Shown here: piece by piece, positions 1,366 through 12,210 of the stretch
Position numbering within the stretch: the first letter of the stretch is position 1
Layout of the letters: each line of letters opens with the position of its first letter
Assembly: GCA_030149205.1 (NCBI GenBank)
Contig: JASBSB010000007.1
Coordinates: 570,001-602,000, forward strand
DNA from: Candidatus Heimdallarchaeota archaeon
GTDB taxonomy: Archaea > Asgardarchaeota > Heimdallarchaeia > Heimdallarchaeales > Kariarchaeaceae
Length of the DNA stretch: 32,000 nt
Direction of reading: 5' to 3'
Notes under the pieces: generated by a model
What the model was told of the DNA's origin: nothing
Database searches by the model: none
The model's input: only the letters and a program-made list of their open reading frames with translations
Position numbers and translations under genes: made by a program

Positions 1366-1494
1366 ATACTCTCAGAGTAAGAGAATTTTATAATTCTTCT
1401 GCATTGGCTAATATTTGAAAAAAAATGCAAATTTAGAGAAAGAGAAACGGTTAAATACTGGCATAAAATACTAAACCATCATATAGGTGATACT

Positions 1495-1951: not shown

Positions 1952-3124
1952 ATGCTATCTGACGTCACAGAAGTTTGGAAACAAATTCAAATAAATTTTA
2001 AATTTTCCTTTACGTTGTTTGTGTTTACCATAATCCTAGGTATTTGGAACAGCGAATCCCCTGCAACTCTCCCAGCAGGCTTTTTACTTATTCATATTCA
2101 CACAGGTACCCTCGCCTGGATCTTTTTCCTTTTATTTACGTTATTTGTAAAATATGCCAATGATTTATCCGAACTGACTGAAAAACAATTAAAGCAGTTC
2201 AAGATGTTTTCTTACTACAACATTGTTGTATTTACACTTTATATTCTTAGTTTCTACTTAGCCTTAAATTTCAACAGTTTAGTTATGTTATTGGCTATAA
2301 TGGCACTACTGGCCTGGGGTGGGATTGTACAGGCAGCAGTACTCACATTCACAATTCTAAGAGGTTTATCAAAGAAGAATACTGGCTTTTATGAGGTTTT
2401 TGCCTCAATGGTCATGGCAGTCTTAGCTGGGGCAGTTGGACTAGAACGAGCAGTCATGCTTGGTTTAAACCGTATGGGTTCTGGTACAGGAGATATCGCA
2501 CTGAGTCATGCAGTTTTTATGAACGTTGGACTTGTTCTTCTTGGTGTTATCGGTTTTCTTCACCTTGCTCTAATTTCTAGAGAAAATTCATTCCTAGGTA
2601 AAATCGAAATGTATTCTCTTATCTTTGCGGCTGTAATGCTTAGTACTTCTTATCGGGTTTATTCCATCCCAATGTTTGTGGTAGGGTATATTCTCTTACT
2701 TTTAGGTCTTGGCCTGTTTTTCTTAGCTTTGATAAAGGAGGGAAACTTATTTGGAAAACTAATGGAAGTTGGAGAGAGCTATCTTGGATGGTCAACCTTG
2801 TTCATAATCATTTATTTTGGAATTCAAACCTACATTTTAACTCTACTACTCAATTCTGGCTTTCCTCTTGTATCAAATATTAACACAGCAGCTTTTCATA
2901 GCTTATATTTGGGTGTGGCTACCAATTTTCTCCTTGGTGCATTTGTGGTTGATTATCTCTCAGAATTAAAGATGTCTAAAATTGTTCTAGCTCTTGTGAT
3001 AATCTTCAATCTTTCATTGTTAGGGTTTATCATTAGTTTACTCTTGAGTACATCATTACATATCGCAGCTCTCATGGGAATAGCATTGTTAATACTGATA
3101 GGTTATTACTTTTCTCAATCATAA
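1952..3124 (+). CDS. Polytopic membrane protein (about 12 TM) of unknown function with three His-containing helices
   Basis: 390 aa, highly hydrophobic; HIHTGTLAW (H48/H50), SHAVFMNVG (H186), FHSLYLG (H316). Confidence 0.7.
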   Translation: MLSDVTEVWKQIQINFKFSFTLFVFTIILGIWNSESPATLPAGFLLIHIHTGTLAWIFFLLFTLFVKYANDLSELTEKQLKQFKMFSYYNIVVFTLYILSFYLALNFNSLVMLLAIMALLAWGGIVQAAVLTFTILRGLSKKNTGFYEVFASMVMAVLAGAVGLERAVMLGLNRMGSGTGDIALSHAVFMNVGLVLLGVIGFLHLALISRENSFLGKIEMYSLIFAAVMLSTSYRVYSIPMFVVGYILLLLGLGLFFLALIKEGNLFGKLMEVGESYLGWSTLFIIIYFGIQTYILTLLLNSGFPLVSNINTAAFHSLYLGVATNFLLGAFVVDYLSELKMSKIVLALVIIFNLSLLGFIISLLLSTSLHIAALMGIALLILIGYYFSQS

Positions 3125-3197: not shown

Positions 3198-3614
3198 ATG
3201 AACAAAAAAGTTCTTTTTATCTGTACGCATAATTCCGCCCGTTCTCAGATGGCTGAGGGATTAACCAATCATTTCTTTCCAGATGTTCAAGCCTTTAGTG
3301 CAGGAACAGAAAAGACTCGTGTGAAACCTGAAGCAATAGAGGCACTGAAAGAAATTGATATAGATATCAGCCACCACACCTCCAAAACGACCGAGGCCTT
3401 TCTTAATGATCAATTTGATCTGGTTGTCACTGTCTGTGATAGCGCAAAGGAATCTTGCCCTTTCTTCCCAAATGCAAAATTGCGGGCTCATGCTGGGTTT
3501 AAAGATCCCTCTGATATTACAGATCCGAAGGAGAGACTTTTAGCATTTAAAAGAACCCGAGATGAGATTTTAGACTGGTTACATGATAACCTTATGGATT
3601 TACTCGAGGACTGA
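3198..3614 (+). CDS. arsC: Arsenate reductase, thioredoxin-coupled LMW-PTP type
   Basis: CTHNSARSQMAE P-loop, TVCDSAKESCPFFP resolving-cysteine segment, DP motif. Confidence 0.88.
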   Translation: MNKKVLFICTHNSARSQMAEGLTNHFFPDVQAFSAGTEKTRVKPEAIEALKEIDIDISHHTSKTTEAFLNDQFDLVVTVCDSAKESCPFFPNAKLRAHAGFKDPSDITDPKERLLAFKRTRDEILDWLHDNLMDLLED

Positions 3615-4590
3615 AAAACTGAAGAAATACATCCCACGTTAACTTACTAGTCATTAGATCATATTTTGCATCAAAATTTGGGGATGTACACCCTGGGGAA
3701 ATAACTCTAACAAATTGAAATCTGATAGTATGGTTGTTTTTCTCCGCATTCAACATCATTTTATAATCATTGATTGAATCCCCAAACATCACAAGCTGTC
3801 TGATTTCTGGATTCTGGTAAATAAGTTGGTTTAAGGCATAAGGATTAGGTTTAAGCAGGCTTTGTCCATTTTCAACACAATTTTCTATGAAGAATCGAGA
3901 ATCTGGCAAGAATAAATCTTCAATCATATTACTCTCAAGAAATAAGTCTAAATCAACCTTGGGTCTTCCAGTTACCACAGCAAGCTTTACCATTGAAGAG
4001 AGCCTCCTCAAATCATTAAAGTCAACCAATAATTGTTCCTTCATGTACAAGGGGTCCGGGTTAAGGTGTTTCAGATAAGGTATGTTTCCATAAATTTTCT
4101 CAAACATCTCATTACCGTAATAAAACTGCTGGAAAATGTTTTCCAATAAATTTGTTGCCAAAATATCACCATTGTTTTTGAGAAAGACCGGTGGATTAGC
4201 TTGAATTAGGGATAAGTAGCTCTCAGGTTTTGATCCAACTCCATTCAAAAATATCTGAAATTTCTTTACAAAGTCTCCTGTAAGATTTTGTTCTTTGAAA
4301 TTCATCTTTTCATACTTTAATCTATCGAATCGACTGTTATTCCCAGATACAATAGAGATCATAAACAGAATAAACAATGATGCAACATCATAATCTGAAT
4401 TGAATCCTTCAATCTCTTTCACCCTGCAATAATCATCGAGGTTAAAGAGTATATCTGGGATGTTGTTCCATCCTAAGACCTCTGTAAGATAAGTTTCAGC
4501 GGTCTTAATAGCAGCTACACCATAAGAATGCAATGTGCTGACTAAGGTCTCATCCACATCAAATACAAACATGGTGTCAAAATCAGGCAA
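3592..4590 (-). CDS. HAD-superfamily hydrolase (subfamily IA-like); candidate histidinol-phosphate phosphatase
   Basis: Motif I FDVDETL, motif II VVTGRP, motif III LKPNP, motif IV FGDSIND. Start is TTG 4590 or ATG 4572. Confidence 0.85.
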   Translation of the reverse strand: MPDFDTMFVFDVDETLVSTLHSYGVAAIKTAETYLTEVLGWNNIPDILFNLDDYCRVKEIEGFNSDYDVASLFILFMISIVSGNNSRFDRLKYEKMNFKEQNLTGDFVKKFQIFLNGVGSKPESYLSLIQANPPVFLKNNGDILATNLLENIFQQFYYGNEMFEKIYGNIPYLKHLNPDPLYMKEQLLVDFNDLRRLSSMVKLAVVTGRPKVDLDLFLESNMIEDLFLPDSRFFIENCVENGQSLLKPNPYALNQLIYQNPEIRQLVMFGDSINDYKMMLNAEKNNHTIRFQFVRVISPGCTSPNFDAKYDLMTSKLTWDVFLQFFSPRVNP

Positions 4591-4680
4591 TGTTAATTTT
4601 TTAATGTAAACATCTGTTAATTAGGTTCCTATTCACTCATAACTAATCAAAAAAGATGTTCGTTCTTTGTTTGTTAGACA

Positions 4681-4698
4681 AGAAACAAGTGTTTAAAT
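4681..4698 (+). promoter_or_regulatory. Putative BRE/TATA promoter for the his leader and operon
   Basis: Purine-rich AGAAACAAG followed by TTTAAAT (4692-4698), about 25 nt before ATG 4724; spacing fits a leaderless start at the upstream ORF. Confidence 0.45.
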
Positions 4699-4723
4699 CT
4701 TAGTATGAGCAGAACATATTAAC

Positions 4724-4825
4724 ATGAAATGTGGCATTATCAAAGCAAGAGGAAATTTGAACAGTCGAATTCAGAATCTAATTGACCTGGTAAGCCACCA
4801 TCATCATATACATCATCATTTATAA
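4724..4825 (+). CDS. Putative histidine leader peptide (hisL-like upstream ORF), 33 aa: MKCGIIKARGNLNSRIQNLIDLVSHHHHIHHHL
   Basis: Read by hand: ATG 4724, then ...AGC CAC CAT CAT CAT ATA CAT CAT CAT TTA TAA. Seven of the last nine sense codons are His, and the stop is 94 nt before the first his gene. An alternative TTG start at 4757 follows AGAGGA. Confidence 0.75.
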   Translation: MKCGIIKARGNLNSRIQNLIDLVSHHHHIHHHL

Positions 4826-4880
4826 TTTAACGAACTGCATAAAAGAATCAAAAATTATTTTCTATAAAACCAATGTTTGA

Positions 4881-4909
4881 TCTTCTCTGGCTGATAATGC
4901 CACAGAAGA
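4881..4909 (+). promoter_or_regulatory. Stem-loop abutting the hisIE ribosome-binding site
   Basis: TCTTCT-C-TGGC/TGATAAT/GCCA-C-AGAAGA: 10 bp with one mismatch and a 7-nt loop. The 3' arm overlaps GAAGGT (4908-4913); ATG is at 4920. No U-tract follows. Confidence 0.45.
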
Positions 4910-4919
4910 AGGTACCAAC

Positions 4920-5972
4920 ATGATATCGTTAGTCATAGAACAGAATCTTTACGCTTCACTAGAACCTAATATTCGAGAGGTTCTATATATCTGCTTCCCA
5001 CTCACAATTGAAAAGGGGTCTGCTTCATATCCTCTTCCGGAAGATTTCAAAGTTAGATCTGAGAAAAGCCCTGAAGATTGGATAAAAGTCGGAGCAACGG
5101 AAATTTATCTCGATAATACTCAAGAGACGAACTATGGACAATGGAAAGAGATCTACAGTATCGAAGATTTGAAAAATCTCGTCAATCACATCTCAGTCCC
5201 AACAGTAGTTGATTTTCAATCTACTAATTTTGACCCTGTGCTCCTTGAACAATCAATCAAGAATCTACCATCTTTAATCCCTGTAACAATAGTGTTTGAT
5301 TATAAATCGTTAGATACTCTTTTAACCCTTATATCACTGGATCTCGATCTAGGGATACGTGTAAGAAATACTCAAAGCATTACTGAATTGTTGAGGAATT
5401 ATACAAACCTTCTGAAATTTAATTCTGAGAAATTGATTCCTACTGTCACCTTAGATCAAGACTCTCGCTTTCTTATGATGGCCTACTCAAGCCGTGAATC
5501 AGTAGATCTTACAATTGACACTAGGTATGCAACTTATTTCAGTCGATCCAGATCAAGACTTTGGAAAAAGGGTGAAACCTCAGGAAACTTACAACAGATC
5601 ACTAAGATTAGGATGGACTGTGATAGGGATACCTTGGTCTTCTATACCACCCCTCTTGGTCCAGCTTGTCACAGAGGCACATACAGTTGCATTGGAGGGA
5701 AGCAGTTAAGATATAAGGATTTCTTTACAAGAGTCCAAAAGAGAATTATAAACCCAGATCCCAATTCTTATACTCAGAGGTTGATCAAAGATCCAAAACT
5801 TCTTTCAGACAAGATAGCAGAAGAGAGTAACGAAGTAATAAATTACACAGACAAAATGAACTTAGTTTGGGAGATTGCTGACCTCACATATTTTGTATCT
5901 GTACTTATGATCAGGGAAGGTATACGGGCAAAAAACGTTTTACGTGAATTGAAATCTAGGGAGAGAAATTAG
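4920..5972 (+). CDS. hisIE: Bifunctional phosphoribosyl-AMP cyclohydrolase/phosphoribosyl-ATP pyrophosphatase with an N-terminal extra domain of about 170 aa
   Basis: HisI motifs YFSRSRSRLWKKGETSGN, DCDRDTL, ACHRGTYSC; HisE motifs SYTQRL, KIAEESNE, WEIADLTYF. Confidence 0.95.
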   Translation: MISLVIEQNLYASLEPNIREVLYICFPLTIEKGSASYPLPEDFKVRSEKSPEDWIKVGATEIYLDNTQETNYGQWKEIYSIEDLKNLVNHISVPTVVDFQSTNFDPVLLEQSIKNLPSLIPVTIVFDYKSLDTLLTLISLDLDLGIRVRNTQSITELLRNYTNLLKFNSEKLIPTVTLDQDSRFLMMAYSSRESVDLTIDTRYATYFSRSRSRLWKKGETSGNLQQITKIRMDCDRDTLVFYTTPLGPACHRGTYSCIGGKQLRYKDFFTRVQKRIINPDPNSYTQRLIKDPKLLSDKIAEESNEVINYTDKMNLVWEIADLTYFVSVLMIREGIRAKNVLRELKSRERN

Positions 5973-5974
5973 CT

Positions 5975-6967
5975 ATGAATGGTAAGACAAGTTCAACAAT
6001 TAAAATTGGCATTCCATCTAAAGGGAGAATGGGAGAAGAAACCATTGAGTTCCTCAAAAAATGTGGTTTGGAAGTAAAGAGAACAAGACGTAACTATTTT
6101 GCTTCTATTCCAGCCTATCCTGACATCAAGGTGGTTTTACAAAGGCAAGAAGACATTGTAAAAGGGGTCACCTCAGGTCTGCTTGAGATGGGTATCATCG
6201 GATTTGATTTATATACTGAAATTTTGAATAGTGAGGAGAAGAGACAAACAATAGTATTGTTTGACGACCTTGAGTTTGGAAAATGTGACTTAGCAATCGC
6301 AGTTCCTGAGGAATGGGAAATTTCTGATATTACAGAATTTGATCGGTCAAAGGGGTATAGAGTTGCAACAAAATTCACTAACACAACCCAGGAATTTTTG
6401 GATACGCAAAATATCGCTTTTCAATTTGTTGAAGGTGCAGGAACACTCGAAATCTCACCAGCTTTGGGAAATGCAGATTTCATTGTTGATTTGGTATCAA
6501 CGGGCCAAACGCTCAAAGATAACAGGTTGAAACAGATTAACAACGGAAAGATACTCAGTTCACAAGCGATATTTGTTGGAAACAGGACAATCCTGAAATC
6601 AACCCCTGAGGCTTTACACATAGCTAGCGATTTAATAGAAATATTTGCCGCAACATTAAGAGCAGAAAAATTTGTATCTGTATTTGTTAATATGAGGGGA
6701 AATAACAGGCAGGAGATAATTGATCAATTTTTTACTGTGGATGGATTAGAGGGTTTACAAGGTCCTACAGTGTCAGATGTATACACAAAGGACAACGGGG
6801 ACTGGTTTGCGGTTCATCTTGTGGTGGCAAAGAGAAACTTACTCACAGCAATAAAAAACATCAGACAACTCGGAGGTTCTGGGGTTGTTGTTTCGGAGAC
6901 TAATTATATCTTTGAGGAGGAACCAAAGCAGTACACTCTCCTTAAAGAACAGCTTAGGGGTGAATAA
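5975..6967 (+). CDS. hisG: ATP phosphoribosyltransferase, long form
   Basis: GIPSKGRM, VATKF, GTLEISPALGNADFIVDLVSTGQTLKDNRL; C-terminal regulatory domain GLQGPTVS...GGSGV. Confidence 0.96.
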   Translation: MNGKTSSTIKIGIPSKGRMGEETIEFLKKCGLEVKRTRRNYFASIPAYPDIKVVLQRQEDIVKGVTSGLLEMGIIGFDLYTEILNSEEKRQTIVLFDDLEFGKCDLAIAVPEEWEISDITEFDRSKGYRVATKFTNTTQEFLDTQNIAFQFVEGAGTLEISPALGNADFIVDLVSTGQTLKDNRLKQINNGKILSSQAIFVGNRTILKSTPEALHIASDLIEIFAATLRAEKFVSVFVNMRGNNRQEIIDQFFTVDGLEGLQGPTVSDVYTKDNGDWFAVHLVVAKRNLLTAIKNIRQLGGSGVVVSETNYIFEEEPKQYTLLKEQLRGE

Positions 6968-8308
6968 ATGAAGATACTAAACGTTGATGAGGCTCGTAAG
7001 AGCATATTACTAAGAAGGCCTCTGATTGATTATGAATTGCCAGACAGACTAAAAGATGCGATTAAATCAATCTTTGGAAAAGATCTGGATGCAAGGGGTG
7101 TTGTGCTTCAAATAATTGATGATGTTATAAATGATGGAGATAAGGCACTAAAAGACCTAACCAACAGAATTGATGGTGTTCAGATGTCGAATTTCAAAGT
7201 TCAGAGTGATGAATTTGAGAATGCTGAGTTTAACACAGAAAATGACATTTTAGTCGCATTAAAAGAATCAATAACCCGAGTATATAGATTTCATCAGCAA
7301 CAACCTGTTAACTCATGGGTTACTCAGGAGTTAGGTGGAACTCTTGGTCAACTTATACGACCAATTGAAAGAATTGGCTGTTATGTCCCAGGTGGCTCAG
7401 CTCCTCTTCCCTCAACAGTCATAATGAGTATAATTCCTGCAATTGTTGCGGGGGTTAAACAAATTGTTATCACAACTCCTCCTCAAAAATCTGGAGAAGT
7501 TTCCACAGTAATTCTTACAGCAGTGCAATTAATAAGAGAACAATTCCCTGATATAGAACTATCTTTATACAAGGTCGGTGGTGCTCAAGCAATCGCTGCT
7601 ATGGCGTTTGGAACACAAACAATCCCCAAGGTCGATAAAATAGTAGGGCCCGGTAATATTTTTGTCTCGATAGCAAAAAAAGAGGTATTTGGGGTTGTTG
7701 GAATTGATGGAATTGCTGGACCAACAGAGGCCATGATTCTTGCAGATGAATCTGTAAATGCTGATCTGATAGCTGCTGATCTTCTTGCACAGGCAGAACA
7801 TGATCCGATGGCAGTACCCATTCTGGTTACGACCAGCCTAGACTTTGCTTTACTGGTCAACAAATGTGTTGAGAAGCAAGTTGCAGACCTTTCCAGATCA
7901 GAGATAATCAAATCATCTATAAACAACAGGGGTGGAATCGTGTTAGTTGACAGCATTGAACAAGGAATTGTTATAGTCAACGAATTTGCACCAGAACATC
8001 TTTCACTTGCAGTGAAAGGTTATTGGGACATTATTCCCAAGATTCATAATGCTGGAGGTATATTTCTTGGTGAGCTTTCTTGTGAGGTTCTAGGTGATTA
8101 CATCGCGGGACCAAGCCATGTGATGCCCACAGGTGGTTCTGCTAAATATGCCTCACCTTTGAATATATTAGACTTTGTGAAGATCGTCAGTCTCGTTGGA
8201 CTCGATAAGTCAACAGTCCAAAAAATATCTACGCAAGCAGAAACAATAGCCCAATCCGAAAAGCTGACTGCACACGCAGCAGCAGCTAAACTTAGGAGTC
8301 AGATATAA
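6968..8308 (+). CDS. hisD: Histidinol dehydrogenase
   Basis: YVPGG, GGAQAIAAMAFGT, KIVGPGN, AGPTE, DLLAQAEHD, APEHL, GDYIAGPSHVMPT. Confidence 0.97.
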   Translation: MKILNVDEARKSILLRRPLIDYELPDRLKDAIKSIFGKDLDARGVVLQIIDDVINDGDKALKDLTNRIDGVQMSNFKVQSDEFENAEFNTENDILVALKESITRVYRFHQQQPVNSWVTQELGGTLGQLIRPIERIGCYVPGGSAPLPSTVIMSIIPAIVAGVKQIVITTPPQKSGEVSTVILTAVQLIREQFPDIELSLYKVGGAQAIAAMAFGTQTIPKVDKIVGPGNIFVSIAKKEVFGVVGIDGIAGPTEAMILADESVNADLIAADLLAQAEHDPMAVPILVTTSLDFALLVNKCVEKQVADLSRSEIIKSSINNRGGIVLVDSIEQGIVIVNEFAPEHLSLAVKGYWDIIPKIHNAGGIFLGELSCEVLGDYIAGPSHVMPTGGSAKYASPLNILDFVKIVSLVGLDKSTVQKISTQAETIAQSEKLTAHAAAAKLRSQI

Positions 8309-9414
8309 TGATCCCTAGAATTGCAGTACAGTCAATGGAAGCTTATTCTCCATTAAAAAGTCTAAAAGAAATTTCAGAAGAGATAAAGCTCGATGTCAAT
8401 GAAATCGTCAAACTCAATGGGAACGAGAACCCATTTCCATTATCATTTCAAATGACTGATACCATAAACTTAGAAGTATATCCAGACCCAGAGTCGAAGG
8501 TTCTCACTCAAAAGATTGCAAATTTTGTTGGGTTAGCACCAGATCAGGTCTTTGTTGGTGCTGGTGCGGATGAAATAATTGATCTGATACAACGGGCATT
8601 TCTCAATCCAGGTGATAGAGTAATCAGCTTAGAACCAACATTCAGCATGTACGAGTTTTTCTGTAATCTGAACTCGGGAAATTTTATATCAATCCCCATG
8701 AGGAAGGTGGTTAATCTCAACCTATCAGAATATCAAATCCCCACAGACAAGGTGCTGAAGGAGGCAGATAATGCAAAGATGATTTTTCTTAGCTCACCTA
8801 ATAATCCAGATGGGAAGCTGGTCAACAATAATCTTATCTTAGAATTACTACGGAAAGGGGTGCTCGTTGTACTGGATGAGGCCTATATTGAATTTTCACA
8901 TCAATCACCAACAATAAACTTAGTAAATGAGTATTCAAATCTGATTGTCTTAAGAACCTTCAGCAAAGCGTTTGGACTGGCTGGCATGAGAATTGGGTAT
9001 GCACTTCTAAACCCAGAGTTAAAGTTCATCCTCCAGAAGATCAAGCAACCTTATAATGTTACAACATTGTCTCAAAATCTCGCAATAAATGCATTGGAAA
9101 GAATTAAGGAGATACAAGAGAATGTAGAAGTTATAAAAGAGATCAGAGATGAATACTTTCAAAAATTTTCTGAGCTGACTATTCAAACCGACCAATTGAA
9201 AATTCACAGATCAGATGCAAATTTCATTCTAATGGACTTTACTACTCCAAAAATTGCAAGTGAGATTTTCCAGTATCTGAAGCAAGAGGGAGTTCTCGTA
9301 AGATATTACAATAATGAAATACTTAACAGCTCAATACGTGTATCAATCGGGAGAAGGGAACAGATGGAGAAGGTTTATTCTCTTCTCTCAAAAAAACTAG
9401 CGGTGATAAAATGA
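8308..9414 (+). CDS. hisC: Histidinol-phosphate aminotransferase
   Basis: NENP, GADEIID, SPNNPDG, DEAYIEF, RTFSKAFGLAGMRIGY; TAATG coupling to hisD. Confidence 0.96.
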   Translation: MIPRIAVQSMEAYSPLKSLKEISEEIKLDVNEIVKLNGNENPFPLSFQMTDTINLEVYPDPESKVLTQKIANFVGLAPDQVFVGAGADEIIDLIQRAFLNPGDRVISLEPTFSMYEFFCNLNSGNFISIPMRKVVNLNLSEYQIPTDKVLKEADNAKMIFLSSPNNPDGKLVNNNLILELLRKGVLVVLDEAYIEFSHQSPTINLVNEYSNLIVLRTFSKAFGLAGMRIGYALLNPELKFILQKIKQPYNVTTLSQNLAINALERIKEIQENVEVIKEIRDEYFQKFSELTIQTDQLKIHRSDANFILMDFTTPKIASEIFQYLKQEGVLVRYYNNEILNSSIRVSIGRREQMEKVYSLLSKKLAVIK

Positions 9415-10007
9415 CAAGACAAGGAGAAATCAGTCGAAAGACAAAGGAAACAGAAATCAAAGTTGTAATAAACTTGGATGGAGAGGGAAACACGAACATA
9501 TCAACAGGTATTGGGTTCTTGAACCACATGCTCACAGCATTCGCTGTTCATGGAAAATTTAACCTAGAGGTAAAAGCAATTGGGGATCTAGATATTGACA
9601 CACATCACACAGTGGAAGATATAGCCATCTGTCTGGGGCTAGCAATACAACAAGCAATAGGAGAAAAAAGAGGGATTGAACGAATGGCAGATTCCTTTGT
9701 TCCAATGGATGAATCTCTGGTTCGTGTAGTCTTGGATCTATCAGGAAGACCATATTTTGTTAGTGACTTCAAATGGGATTCTCCCTTAATTGGAAGTATC
9801 AGCTCTCAGATCATTAAAACCAGTGAGATTGAACATTTTCTAGAAACCCTTGCCTTCAGATCACTTACCACACTTCACATAAAGGTGTTCTATGGGAGAG
9901 ATGACCATCACATGTCTGAAGCTGTTTTCAAGGCACTTGGGAGGGCATTGTATAAAGCAACTAGGATTGTTGGCACTACTGTTCCCTCATCAAAGGGAAT
10001 ACTGTAA
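9411..10007 (+). CDS. hisB: Imidazoleglycerol-phosphate dehydratase, monofunctional (no phosphatase domain)
   Basis: RKTKETEI, TGIGFLNHML, DTHHTVED, PMDES, DDHHMSEAVFKA; ATGA overlap with hisC. Confidence 0.97.
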   Translation: MTRQGEISRKTKETEIKVVINLDGEGNTNISTGIGFLNHMLTAFAVHGKFNLEVKAIGDLDIDTHHTVEDIAICLGLAIQQAIGEKRGIERMADSFVPMDESLVRVVLDLSGRPYFVSDFKWDSPLIGSISSQIIKTSEIEHFLETLAFRSLTTLHIKVFYGRDDHHMSEAVFKALGRALYKATRIVGTTVPSSKGIL

Positions 10008-10018
10008 GAGGATAAAAG

Positions 10019-10621
10019 ATGATAGCAATAGTTAATACTGGCTCTGGAAATCTAAGATCAGTTCAAAAAGCACTTGAATTATTTTATCCAGAGATTAAGA
10101 TAATTGATACCCCAAAAAGCATCAGTTCAGCAGATGGGATGGTCTTGCCTGGGGTAGGTTCCTTTGGTGATGCAGTTGATACATTAAATGAAATAGATCT
10201 TTTTGAGGAAGTTAAGGAGTTGGGAAAATCCATACCGGTACTTGGAATTTGTCTGGGAATGCAGATTCTTTTTGAGCGATCTGAAGAGTCACCAGATGCT
10301 ACAGGTTTAGGATTGTTAAGAGGAGAGGTTTTAAAACTTCATCCTCTCAATGATACTAATGTCCCACATACTGGTTGGAATCGTTTAATTCCACAGCAAA
10401 AGGAACAGAAGATTGAGAACCTTAAGTACGCCTATTTCAATCACTCATATTACTGCCACCCTGAGGATGAAAATGTTATTGATTATTCTGTTATCCATGG
10501 GGGAAAATATCCCGCGATTATCCAGAAGAGAAATATCTTAGCAACACAGTTTCATCCAGAAAAGAGTAGAGAGAGTGGTGAACAGGTGTTGAAGTATTTT
10601 GTGAGGTCGGTTAGACAGTGA
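10019..10621 (+). CDS. hisH: Imidazole glycerol phosphate synthase glutaminase subunit
   Basis: GSGNLRSV, LPGVGSF, GICLGMQ (catalytic Cys), PHTGWN, QFHPEKS. Confidence 0.96.
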   Translation: MIAIVNTGSGNLRSVQKALELFYPEIKIIDTPKSISSADGMVLPGVGSFGDAVDTLNEIDLFEEVKELGKSIPVLGICLGMQILFERSEESPDATGLGLLRGEVLKLHPLNDTNVPHTGWNRLIPQQKEQKIENLKYAYFNHSYYCHPEDENVIDYSVIHGGKYPAIIQKRNILATQFHPEKSRESGEQVLKYFVRSVRQ

Positions 10622-12210
10622 AGAAAATACTTGTAGCAATAGATCTCATGAACGGAGAGGTAGTCAGACTTAGCCAAGGTGAATTTTCAAATAAGACAGT
10701 CTATTCAAAGACGCCTCTAGATGTAATGAAGAAGTTTGTCTCAGAAGGGGTCGAATGGTTTCATATTGTAAACCTTGATGGAACACAAGCAGAACCGAAA
10801 ATACAACCCAATAATGGAACCAATAATGGAACCAAAACAGGAACTAATAATGAGACTGACGATGACAGTAGGTCTGCCAATTTAACCGTCATAAGACAAC
10901 TGATCAAGTATGGAAAATCAGTTGGGGTCAGTATTCAAATTGGTGGAGGGGTAAGAAATTATACCCAGGTCAAAAAATACCTTGAAATTGGTGTTGACAG
11001 GGTTGTGATTGGAACCTTGGTGTTCAGTGATCCAACTGAATTTAAAAAAATATTATCCGCGTATTCGACTCAAGTAGTCGTTGCTCTTGATGTCTTGGAT
11101 GGAATTGTAAGGGTTCATGGTTGGACTAAATCAACAGAGACAAGCATTGAAACTGCAATCTCTGACCTTCTTTCTCTTGGTGTATCCAACTTTCTTGTGA
11201 CAGACATCAAGAAGGATGGAATGCTGTCAGGAATTAATACTGAACTTTACAGAAAAATTCAATCCCTTTTAGACAGTTCGGAGAGTAAAAAATCAGGGAA
11301 TCACATTGAGATTATTGCTTCTGGGGGTGTAAATTCTCTTGACTCAATTAAATCTGCATTAGAGGTCTGTGGATCTGTTGTCGTAGGTAGGAGTCTATAT
11401 GAGGGAACAATTAACCAAGCTCAACTTGGAAACATAATTTTGGCGTATAACAAAAGCTATCTGACAAAACGAATCATTCCATGTCTTGATGTAAAAAATG
11501 GGAAGGTTGTCAAGGGGGTCAACTTTCTCAATCTCAAAGATATAGGTGATCCAGTCGAGATGGCAATGTACTACAATGAAAAAGGGGCTGATGAGCTTGT
11601 GTTTTTAGATATTACTGCCACAGTTGAAGGTCGAAAAGCAACACTTTCCAAGATACGTGAGGTTGCAGAGACTGTATTCATCCCATTCACAGTTGGTGGA
11701 GGGGTCAAGACACTTGCCGATATTCAAGATATCATTAATGCAGGAGCAGAGAAGGTCGCCATTAATTCGGGAGCGATAAGCAACCCAGAAGTTCTGACTC
11801 AGGGTGCACATAAATTTGGCTCTCAATGCATAGTCTTAGCTGTCGATGTTAAACAAAAAGGTGACACTTGGGAGGTTTACTCTCAGGCAGGAACACAACC
11901 AACAGGGCTTGATGCATTTAGATGGATTGAGAAAGCCATATCTAAGGGAGCAGGTGAAATTCTTGTCACAAGTATAGACAGAGACGGAACCAAACAGGGT
12001 TTCGATTTACAGCTGTTGTCAGAGCTACGAGCAAGATTCAAGGTACCCATTATTGCTTCTGGTGGTGCTGGTCAAGTAGAGCATTTTGCAGAGATATTTG
12101 ACATTGGGATTGATGCAGGATTGGCTGCATCCATCTTTCATGAGAGAGAGATTGAGATTCATACCCTGAAAAGGCTATTGAAAAGTCGAAATGTTAGAGT
12201 AAGAATCTGA
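10618..12210 (+). CDS. hisA/hisF: HisA-HisF fusion (ProFAR isomerase plus IGP synthase cyclase subunit)
   Basis: N-half: [53 protein letters not shown]-half: [46 protein letters not shown]. One continuous 530-aa ORF with a GTG start. Confidence 0.95.
10810..10857 (+). repeat. Four degenerate 12-bp tandem units within the HisA domain ([16 protein letters not shown])
   Basis: AATAATGGAACC AATAATGGAACC AAAACAGGAACT AATAATGAGACT. Confidence 0.85.

Follow-up and report, generated by a model that had tools for sequence, protein, structure and literature searches.

A short ORF ending in a run of histidine codons upstream of the his operon of an Asgard archaeon, a candidate ribosome-sensed leader

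The his operon carried by a Candidatus Heimdallarchaeota genome (assembly GCA_030149205.1) is preceded by a short ORF that closes on a run of histidine codons, raising the question of whether an archaeal ribosome, by its progress through these codons, could inform the operon of the supply of charged tRNA-His. Textbooks present leader-peptide attenuation as a mechanism of bacteria, and its usual explanation relies on bacterial intrinsic terminators. No archaeal leader-peptide attenuator was found in the literature searched, consistent with the statement of the initial annotation of this locus that leader-peptide control is poorly documented in archaea, and upstream ORFs from archaeal ribosome profiling have been described as not well characterised (PMC7261190). 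The locus is analysed here within a 32,000-nucleotide stretch of contig JASBSB010000007.1 (positions 570,001 to 602,000, forward strand), hereafter the window, in whose coordinates all positions are given unless another locus is named.

The host is an Asgard archaeon. Its 3.3-Mb genome (12 contigs) has an SSU that scores 1198 bits with the archaeal model against 1010 bits with the bacterial model, and it encodes TBP, ESCRT-II EAP30 (99.8 bits) and a eukaryote-like actin (445 bits). The initial annotation had called the genome apparently archaeal, to be confirmed from ribosomal markers, and had conceded that a bacterial host would reduce the element to an ordinary hisL; the archaeal assignment held, and this refutation does not apply. 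The main features around the short ORF, called the leader below, are the following.

3592 to 4590, minus strand: HAD hydrolase gene, divergent from the his operon.
4685 to 4698, plus strand: BRE/TATA-like promoter (AACAAGTG TTTAAA), with TTTAAAT at 4692-4698, 25 nt before the leader ATG.
4724 to 4825, plus strand: leader ORF, 33 codons and a stop, translating to MKCGIIKARGNLNSRIQNLIDLVSHHHHIHHHL.
4796 to 4819, plus strand: His-codon run, four His codons, ATA and three His codons (7 of 8 codons).
4826 to 4919, plus strand: spacer of 94 nt between the leader stop (ending at 4825) and the hisIE start (ATG at 4920).
4909 to 4913, plus strand: weak Shine-Dalgarno-like AAGGT of hisIE, -4.5 kcal/mol against the 3' tail of the host 16S.
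4920 to 12210, plus strand: his operon (hisIE, hisG, hisD, hisC, hisB, hisH and a putative hisA-hisF fusion), from ORFs and Pfam matches.

The anatomy of the element is established directly. The run at 4796-4819 reads CAC CAT CAT CAT ATA CAT CAT CAT, the peptide ends in SHHHHIHHHL, and seven of the last nine sense codons are His codons, with hisIE lying 94 nt further on the same strand. The initial annotation had described an ORF at 4724-4825 with this ending, a TTTAAAT box 25 nt upstream, hisIE 94 nt downstream, and a mixture of CAC and CAT codons interrupted by an in-frame ATA; every detail held. Its observation that no classic hairpin-plus-U terminator follows the leader also held for the window: a scan for intrinsic terminators returned no terminator-like site after the leader, the longest T run within the 94-nt spacer is 4, and folds show no terminator/antiterminator pair. 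A scan for sigma-70 promoters and intrinsic terminators yielded nothing useful, and an Rfam search gave only sub-threshold snoRNA-like noise, without any His_leader match even at E up to 10. The seven leader peptides searched, that of the window among them, have no Pfam or NCBIfam match. A Logan assembly contig of SRR23576960 is identical across window positions 3420-7472, although whether it is independent of the genome's own reads is undetermined.

The His run is far beyond what chance would produce in this genome, where His accounts for 1.65% of codons. A six-frame survey of the 3.3 Mb identified 11 sites with at least six His codons in nine, and that of the leader is the only intergenic one, the other 10 being off-frame or antisense inside long ORFs. 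Among 6,914 short ORFs taken upstream of crude gene calls, the leader ranks first for single-residue enrichment (7/10, binomial 8.6e-10), with its own antisense frame in second place. The next nine short ORFs of the ranking were rejected as further cognate leaders, having no matching biosynthetic operon downstream; the genes that follow them code for a peptidase, an amidohydrolase, an acyl-CoA synthetase, an asparaginase, a kinase or unknown proteins. A wider leader regulon in this host was thus not seen by this crude enrichment ranking. A Phe-rich short ORF (MPVFNRFSFSKFAFFFKY, about 1408-1464, minus strand), located 42 nt upstream of an M20 peptidase gene, has no obvious cognate logic and likely arose by chance.

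Some features of the neighbouring genes may be mentioned in passing. A single ORF of 530 residues at 10618-12210 shows His_biosynth matches in three stretches and is possibly a HisA-HisF fusion, with which these matches are consistent. The N-terminal ~185 residues of HisIE (4920-5474) have no Pfam match; extensions of ~113-125 or ~199 residues are present in Asgard relatives, and metagenomic bacterial HisIE homologues open with a HisA/HisF-like IPSIDL..GK.VQL motif, so the extension may represent a degenerate half-barrel. The divergent HAD hydrolase could possibly supply the missing histidinol-phosphate phosphatase, since HisB of the window is dehydratase-only. A minus-strand promoter-matrix site at ~4598-4611 fits a start of this HAD gene at ATG 4573 rather than at TTG 4590.

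How the leader would be expressed was addressed with a 14-nt BRE/TATA matrix learned from the first-in-operon genes of the host genome. The site at 4685-4698 scores 6.4 bits, the best plus-strand site of the intergenic region, ranking at the 81st percentile when compared with first-in-operon genes and at the 97th when compared with internal ones; the hisIE ATG scores -0.1 bits, the 9th percentile of first genes. The position of this promoter match is thereby shown. Genome-wide, the TATA hexamer peaks sharply at -29/-28 from the ATG of first genes with at least 100 nt of upstream spacer, and that of the leader starts at -32, 3 nt further upstream than the genome mode, from which a 5' UTR of ~3 nt may be predicted. 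Only 16% of first genes have a Shine-Dalgarno pairing of -6 kcal/mol or better with the 16S tail (GAUCACCUCCU), against 68% of internal genes, the mean pairing energies being -3.0 and -7.4 kcal/mol, respectively. With this sharp TATA peak and rare Shine-Dalgarno pairing, first-in-operon genes of the host appear mostly leaderless. No Shine-Dalgarno-like pairing is present upstream of the leader ATG (-3.0 kcal/mol), as in leaderless first cistrons. Since the best promoter match belongs to the leader ATG and hisIE lacks one of its own, the simplest reading, inferred from sequence alone, is that the leader is a leaderless first cistron and hisIE an internal one. The TATA promoter and probable leaderless translation put forward initially fit the spacing and the lack of a Shine-Dalgarno sequence, in the absence of a mapped transcription start.

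Further evidence on the ORF comes from relatives. A short ORF with a His-rich C-terminus precedes the first his gene in 20 other Asgard genomes, this gene being hisIE in 17 of the 20 and hisC in 3. These loci and the window all meet the definition that we used for an Asgard his leader group (at least 4 His in the last 10 residues and a stop 70-190 nt before the first his gene). The resulting 21 loci span four families (f1, f2, f19 and f20) and seven genera; they are not independent, because 18 of them belong to one family. Leader lengths range from about 20 to 62 codons across relatives, and from 36 to 62 codons in the 17 other hisIE-first loci, where the leader stops 72-99 nt (mostly 85-87 nt) before hisIE and ends in tails such as FSHLHHHQHHK, NSYLHHWLHHE, KFNVHHHHHHHH or AAIHHHH. 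In the three genomes with the operon order hisC-B-H-F-A-IE-G, the His-tailed ORF precedes hisC, with tails including SEHHHHMHHHC and NPHHHKQHS. The ORF thus tracks the start of the operon and not a particular gene, since it lies before hisC where hisIE is internal.

The association is specific. Among 3,167 ORFs of at least 15 codons in 204 kb of fetched loci, 19 carry at least 4 His within the final 10 residues, 18 of them being the ORFs found before hisIE. Of 400 genomes of the phylum, only that of the window and G137, a member of another class, contain the exact pattern CAY x4, ATD, CAY x3, in both cases directly upstream of the his operon; the wider layout (four His codons, AT(A/G), three His codons, one codon and TAA) is likewise restricted to these two among the 400 genomes. 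Matches with one mismatch to the pattern were discarded as unrelated, being antisense, inside genes or without any his gene nearby. The conservation is concentrated in the tail: close pairs differ at 0-3 positions in the last nine codons against 9-26 in the leader body, where changes are mostly non-synonymous (for example 10 versus 3 synonymous, or 8 versus 1). This non-synonymous drift of the body, with the last nine codons nearly fixed, fits a regulatory ORF better than a folded protein. Two predictions accompanied the original proposal. His-rich upstream ORFs in relatives with his operons are indeed present in 20 genomes, without being universal, and synonymous CAT/CAC exchange holds between lineages (for example the window, L021 and L129), the closest pairs showing at most one synonymous change in the tail.

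The distribution of the leader also has clear limits. It is absent from 10 hisIE-first loci of the phylum, which have a divergent gene ~185 nt upstream and a longer HisIE N-terminal extension. HisG is present in 45 of 400 genomes of the phylum, and histidine genes are patchy. The window's own genus harbors hisG-first operons that are differently organised and have a different upstream element. Since HisG of the window is about as similar to same-genus relatives (53-56% identity) as to another class (50-53%) and gene order differs, horizontal movement of the operon with its leader within Asgard archaea is possible. Two metagenome scans for closer relatives yielded none, and a search of genome contigs recovered mostly bacterial hisIE loci lacking an upstream His ORF.

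Other elements were observed upstream of his operons in these lineages. The hisG-first operons of the same genus or family are preceded by Shine-Dalgarno-led mini-ORFs in which one Val-His pair is conserved (MLGGYVHTS, MLGDRVHLV, MLGDCVHICR and MKKGECVHINK), located as follows.

L017:2600-2860, L018:2150-2410, L019:2108-2370 and L020 ~2320-2400, minus strand: regions of the Val-His mini-ORFs.

The three same-genus loci also have a second upstream box (MSSDYLHHD and similar) with the ability to pair with the first; in two of these loci the boxes are separated by T6-T7 tracts. In G137, the same GGTGAATATGTTCACC motif is present in a 20-codon Shine-Dalgarno-led ORF between the His leader and hisC (L231:5163-5225, plus strand). 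The Val-His element might serve as another type of His sensor, form a hairpin or be a palindromic site bound by a protein. In family f20 (L121, L125, L128 and others), conservation extends to three elements in the ~100 nt upstream of the leader, namely a AAAACTTTTTTAG box, paired TAGCTA palindromes and a 9-11-bp helix with compensatory changes and one G-U pair that joins positions -21 to -12 with leader codons 11-14. With this structured 5' UTR and a GTGA Shine-Dalgarno sequence, the leaders of the f20 family are therefore not leaderless.

The spacer between leader and hisIE is a structured RNA in relatives. Two hairpins are shared by 15 related loci (95.4% of cells paired). Compensatory change is seen at 7 pairs, whereas shuffles give 1.9 and none of the 500 reaches the observed value, and register shifts abolish the signal. 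One hairpin begins inside the leader stop codon, and the other ends before a U3-4 tract and a GGGGG Shine-Dalgarno sequence. This compensatory pairing indicates a functional RNA and supports co-transcription of the leader with hisIE in these relatives. The window shares none of the spacer sequences of the relatives or of G137. It has its own potential pairing partners, listed below.

4730 to 4742, plus strand: arm A of a perfect 13-nt inverted repeat, in leader codons 3-7.
4788 to 4798, plus strand: segment B, local partner of arm A in the ribosome-free minimum-free-energy folds, overlapping the first His codon.
4882 to 4908, plus strand: hairpin (9 pairs, 7-nt loop) abutting the hisIE Shine-Dalgarno sequence, with arm D contained in its loop and 3' arm.
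4892 to 4904, plus strand: arm D, complementary to arm A over all 13 nt, 16-28 nt upstream of the hisIE ATG.

A repeat of this length was reached by 2 of 1000 dinucleotide-preserving shuffles, and the duplex of arm A with the region before the Shine-Dalgarno sequence reaches -32 kcal/mol (z -5.6). A ribosome stalled on the first His codons would have segment B within its footprint. When such a stall is modelled on any His codon, the probability of A:D pairing rises from 0.23 to 0.91-0.94, and that of the hairpin at 4882-4908 falls in fold modelling from 0.44 in the ribosome-free RNA to 0.00 with the His run masked. The modelled effect on the start region itself is small: the hisIE Shine-Dalgarno sequence gains little accessibility (0.28 to 0.41), and the AUG loses some (0.23 to 0.11). 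Two more general schemes failed across 18 loci, a general opening of the hisIE start region on stalling (mean 0.44 free versus 0.39-0.41 stalled) and a pairing of the stalled footprint with that region, which is no better than in shuffles (mean z +0.3). Conservation of the A:D complement was also rejected; it is peculiar to the window, the remaining 17 loci having a mean z near +0.4, and lacks covariation support. The three-part A/B/D switch is thus a model prediction, plausible and possible, yet weakly supported and resting on one sequence.

We lean modestly towards the view that the ORF is a translated leader that senses the supply of charged tRNA-His by ribosome stalling, an inference made without expression, start-site or ribosome data. 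In the proposed mechanism, transcription would start ~3 nt before the leader ATG from the BRE/TATA element at 4685-4698, and the leader would be read as a leaderless first cistron. Under scarce His-tRNA the ribosome would stall within the run of seven His codons late in the leader, and with plentiful His-tRNA it would complete the leader and depart. In the window, a stalled ribosome may cover segment B (4788-4798) and free arm A (4730-4742), which would pair with its perfect 13-nt complement, arm D (4892-4904), and melt the hairpin (4882-4908) that adjoins the weak ribosome-binding site of hisIE; this gene would then be translated and the transcript would stay coupled. Without a stall the hairpin would form and hisIE would be poorly translated, the naked untranslated RNA being perhaps ended by aCPSF1/FttA or degraded. 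Three routes remain possible for the output: control at translation initiation, termination of the uncoupled RNA by a factor, or intrinsic termination in some lineages. The output may differ between lineages, because G137 has a hairpin and U8 after its leader and the window has none. The ribosome-stalling histidine sensor postulated by the initial annotation has the support that sequence alone can give, the sensing itself being inferred; its non-canonical output (sequestration of the ribosome-binding site, or termination by aCPSF1/FttA) is still inference, with weak RNA modelling on one sequence.

Several other explanations of the ORF should be weighed. It could be translated in a constitutive manner, ribosome loading protecting a leaderless mRNA or boosting hisIE translation without any sensing of histidine. 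The leaderless promoter position of the ORF, the weak Shine-Dalgarno sequence of hisIE and the lack of a consistent stall-dependent opening of its start region would agree with this. A constitutive loader needs no His codons, however, and the His tail is the sole conserved part of the peptide over 21 loci; moreover, the ORF is confined to his operons and no other enriched short ORF of the host precedes a cognate biosynthetic gene, which makes this explanation unlikely. It is equally unlikely that the product is a functional His-rich peptide, supplying, for example, zinc to HisI or HisD, which are metal-dependent. Its His-rich C-terminus could plausibly bind a metal, and the ORF lies beside hisIE in 18 loci, but non-synonymous changes far outnumber synonymous ones in the body, length varies from about 20 to 62 codons, three genomes place the ORF before hisC and far from hisIE, and there is no family match.

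The CAU repeat might also be an RNA or DNA signal, as a pairing partner or a protein site, with an incidental reading frame and control by a protein or RNA factor. AUGAUG lies directly after the His codons in L129, L231 and L233 and is able to pair with them, and conserved palindromes are found upstream in relatives. Against this, the run is always in the frame of the start codon, 20-62 codons remain open in AT-rich, stop-prone DNA, the frame always closes 0-4 codons past the last His, and the interruptions vary (I, M, L, Q, W, C) yet keep frame; we regard this explanation too as improbable. Least credible of all, and very unlikely, is that the ORF arose by chance or that what matters is the Met-rich ORF MMMYMMMVAYQVN on the antisense strand, directed toward the divergent HAD gene. 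This antisense ORF takes second place for enrichment among the short ORFs of the genome, and the AT-rich minus strand has promoter-like matches. Chance is contradicted by the genome-wide rarity of the run, by the specificity of the ORF at the fetched loci and by the occurrence of the exact pattern in 2 of 400 genomes; CAT repeats automatically generate such an antisense frame, and the 20 other loci read His toward the his operon within a long open frame.

A His-sensing leader remains our preferred reading, and it may be compared with known systems. Like enterobacterial hisL (RF00514), the element is a short ORF with seven His codons, just upstream of and co-oriented with a his operon; hisL senses charged tRNA-His through ribosome speed, which for the window leader is inferred. 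Unlike hisL, it resides in an Asgard archaeon behind a TBP/TATA promoter, is probably leaderless, has neither an intrinsic terminator nor a terminator/antiterminator pair, does not match RF00514, and is twice as long, with its His codons at the very end. The closest documented mechanistic analogue, by analogy only, would be the polycysteine leaderless short ORFs of mycobacteria, in which stalled ribosomes block a structure masking the next ribosome-binding site (Canestrari et al., bioRxiv 10.1101/834739). Those ORFs are leaderless first cistrons of a polycistronic mRNA with a run of cognate codons; the window leader has such a run, its place as a leaderless first cistron being inferred from sequence, and the predicted hairpin at 4882-4908 by the hisIE Shine-Dalgarno sequence, with arm A as competitor, would fit this scheme. 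The mycobacterial system, however, is bacterial and senses cysteine. In the window, the arm proposed to counter sequestration precedes the stall site, being located in the 5' end of the ORF, and the modelled gain in Shine-Dalgarno accessibility is small.

Within Asgard archaea, the hisC leader of G137 has 32-36 codons and ends in EHHHHMHHHC, with the same arrangement of four His codons, one other and three His codons, followed by one codon and TAA. It differs from that of the window in preceding hisC and in being followed by a hairpin between the His codons and AUGAUGAU, a 9-bp hairpin with U8 and a second, Shine-Dalgarno-led mini-ORF, an arrangement that, judged from sequence alone, resembles a classical attenuator. 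The two leaders have little sequence in common, and no homology is detectable between them outside the His run. Upstream ORFs of the GCN4/ATF4 type also let the translation machinery report amino-acid status; they act via eIF2 and scanning reinitiation, not through cognate codon runs, and to our knowledge no evidence links this type of control to the window leader.

A bolder reading, which we consider slightly more likely to fail than to hold, is that Asgard archaea have ribosome-sensed his leaders that are mobile and follow the start of the operon, with an output that differs from the bacterial terminator/antiterminator. In the window, this output would consist of a stall-triggered, long-range pairing between the 5' end of the mRNA and the region preceding the hisIE ribosome-binding site, perhaps with factor-dependent termination of untranslated RNA. 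Asgard archaea are the closest prokaryotic relatives of eukaryotes. If the leader senses histidine as proposed, it would represent the first leader-peptide attenuation mechanism described in Archaea, archaeal ribosomes would also serve as amino-acid sensors, and how their signal reaches a eukaryote-like transcription machinery would become a question.
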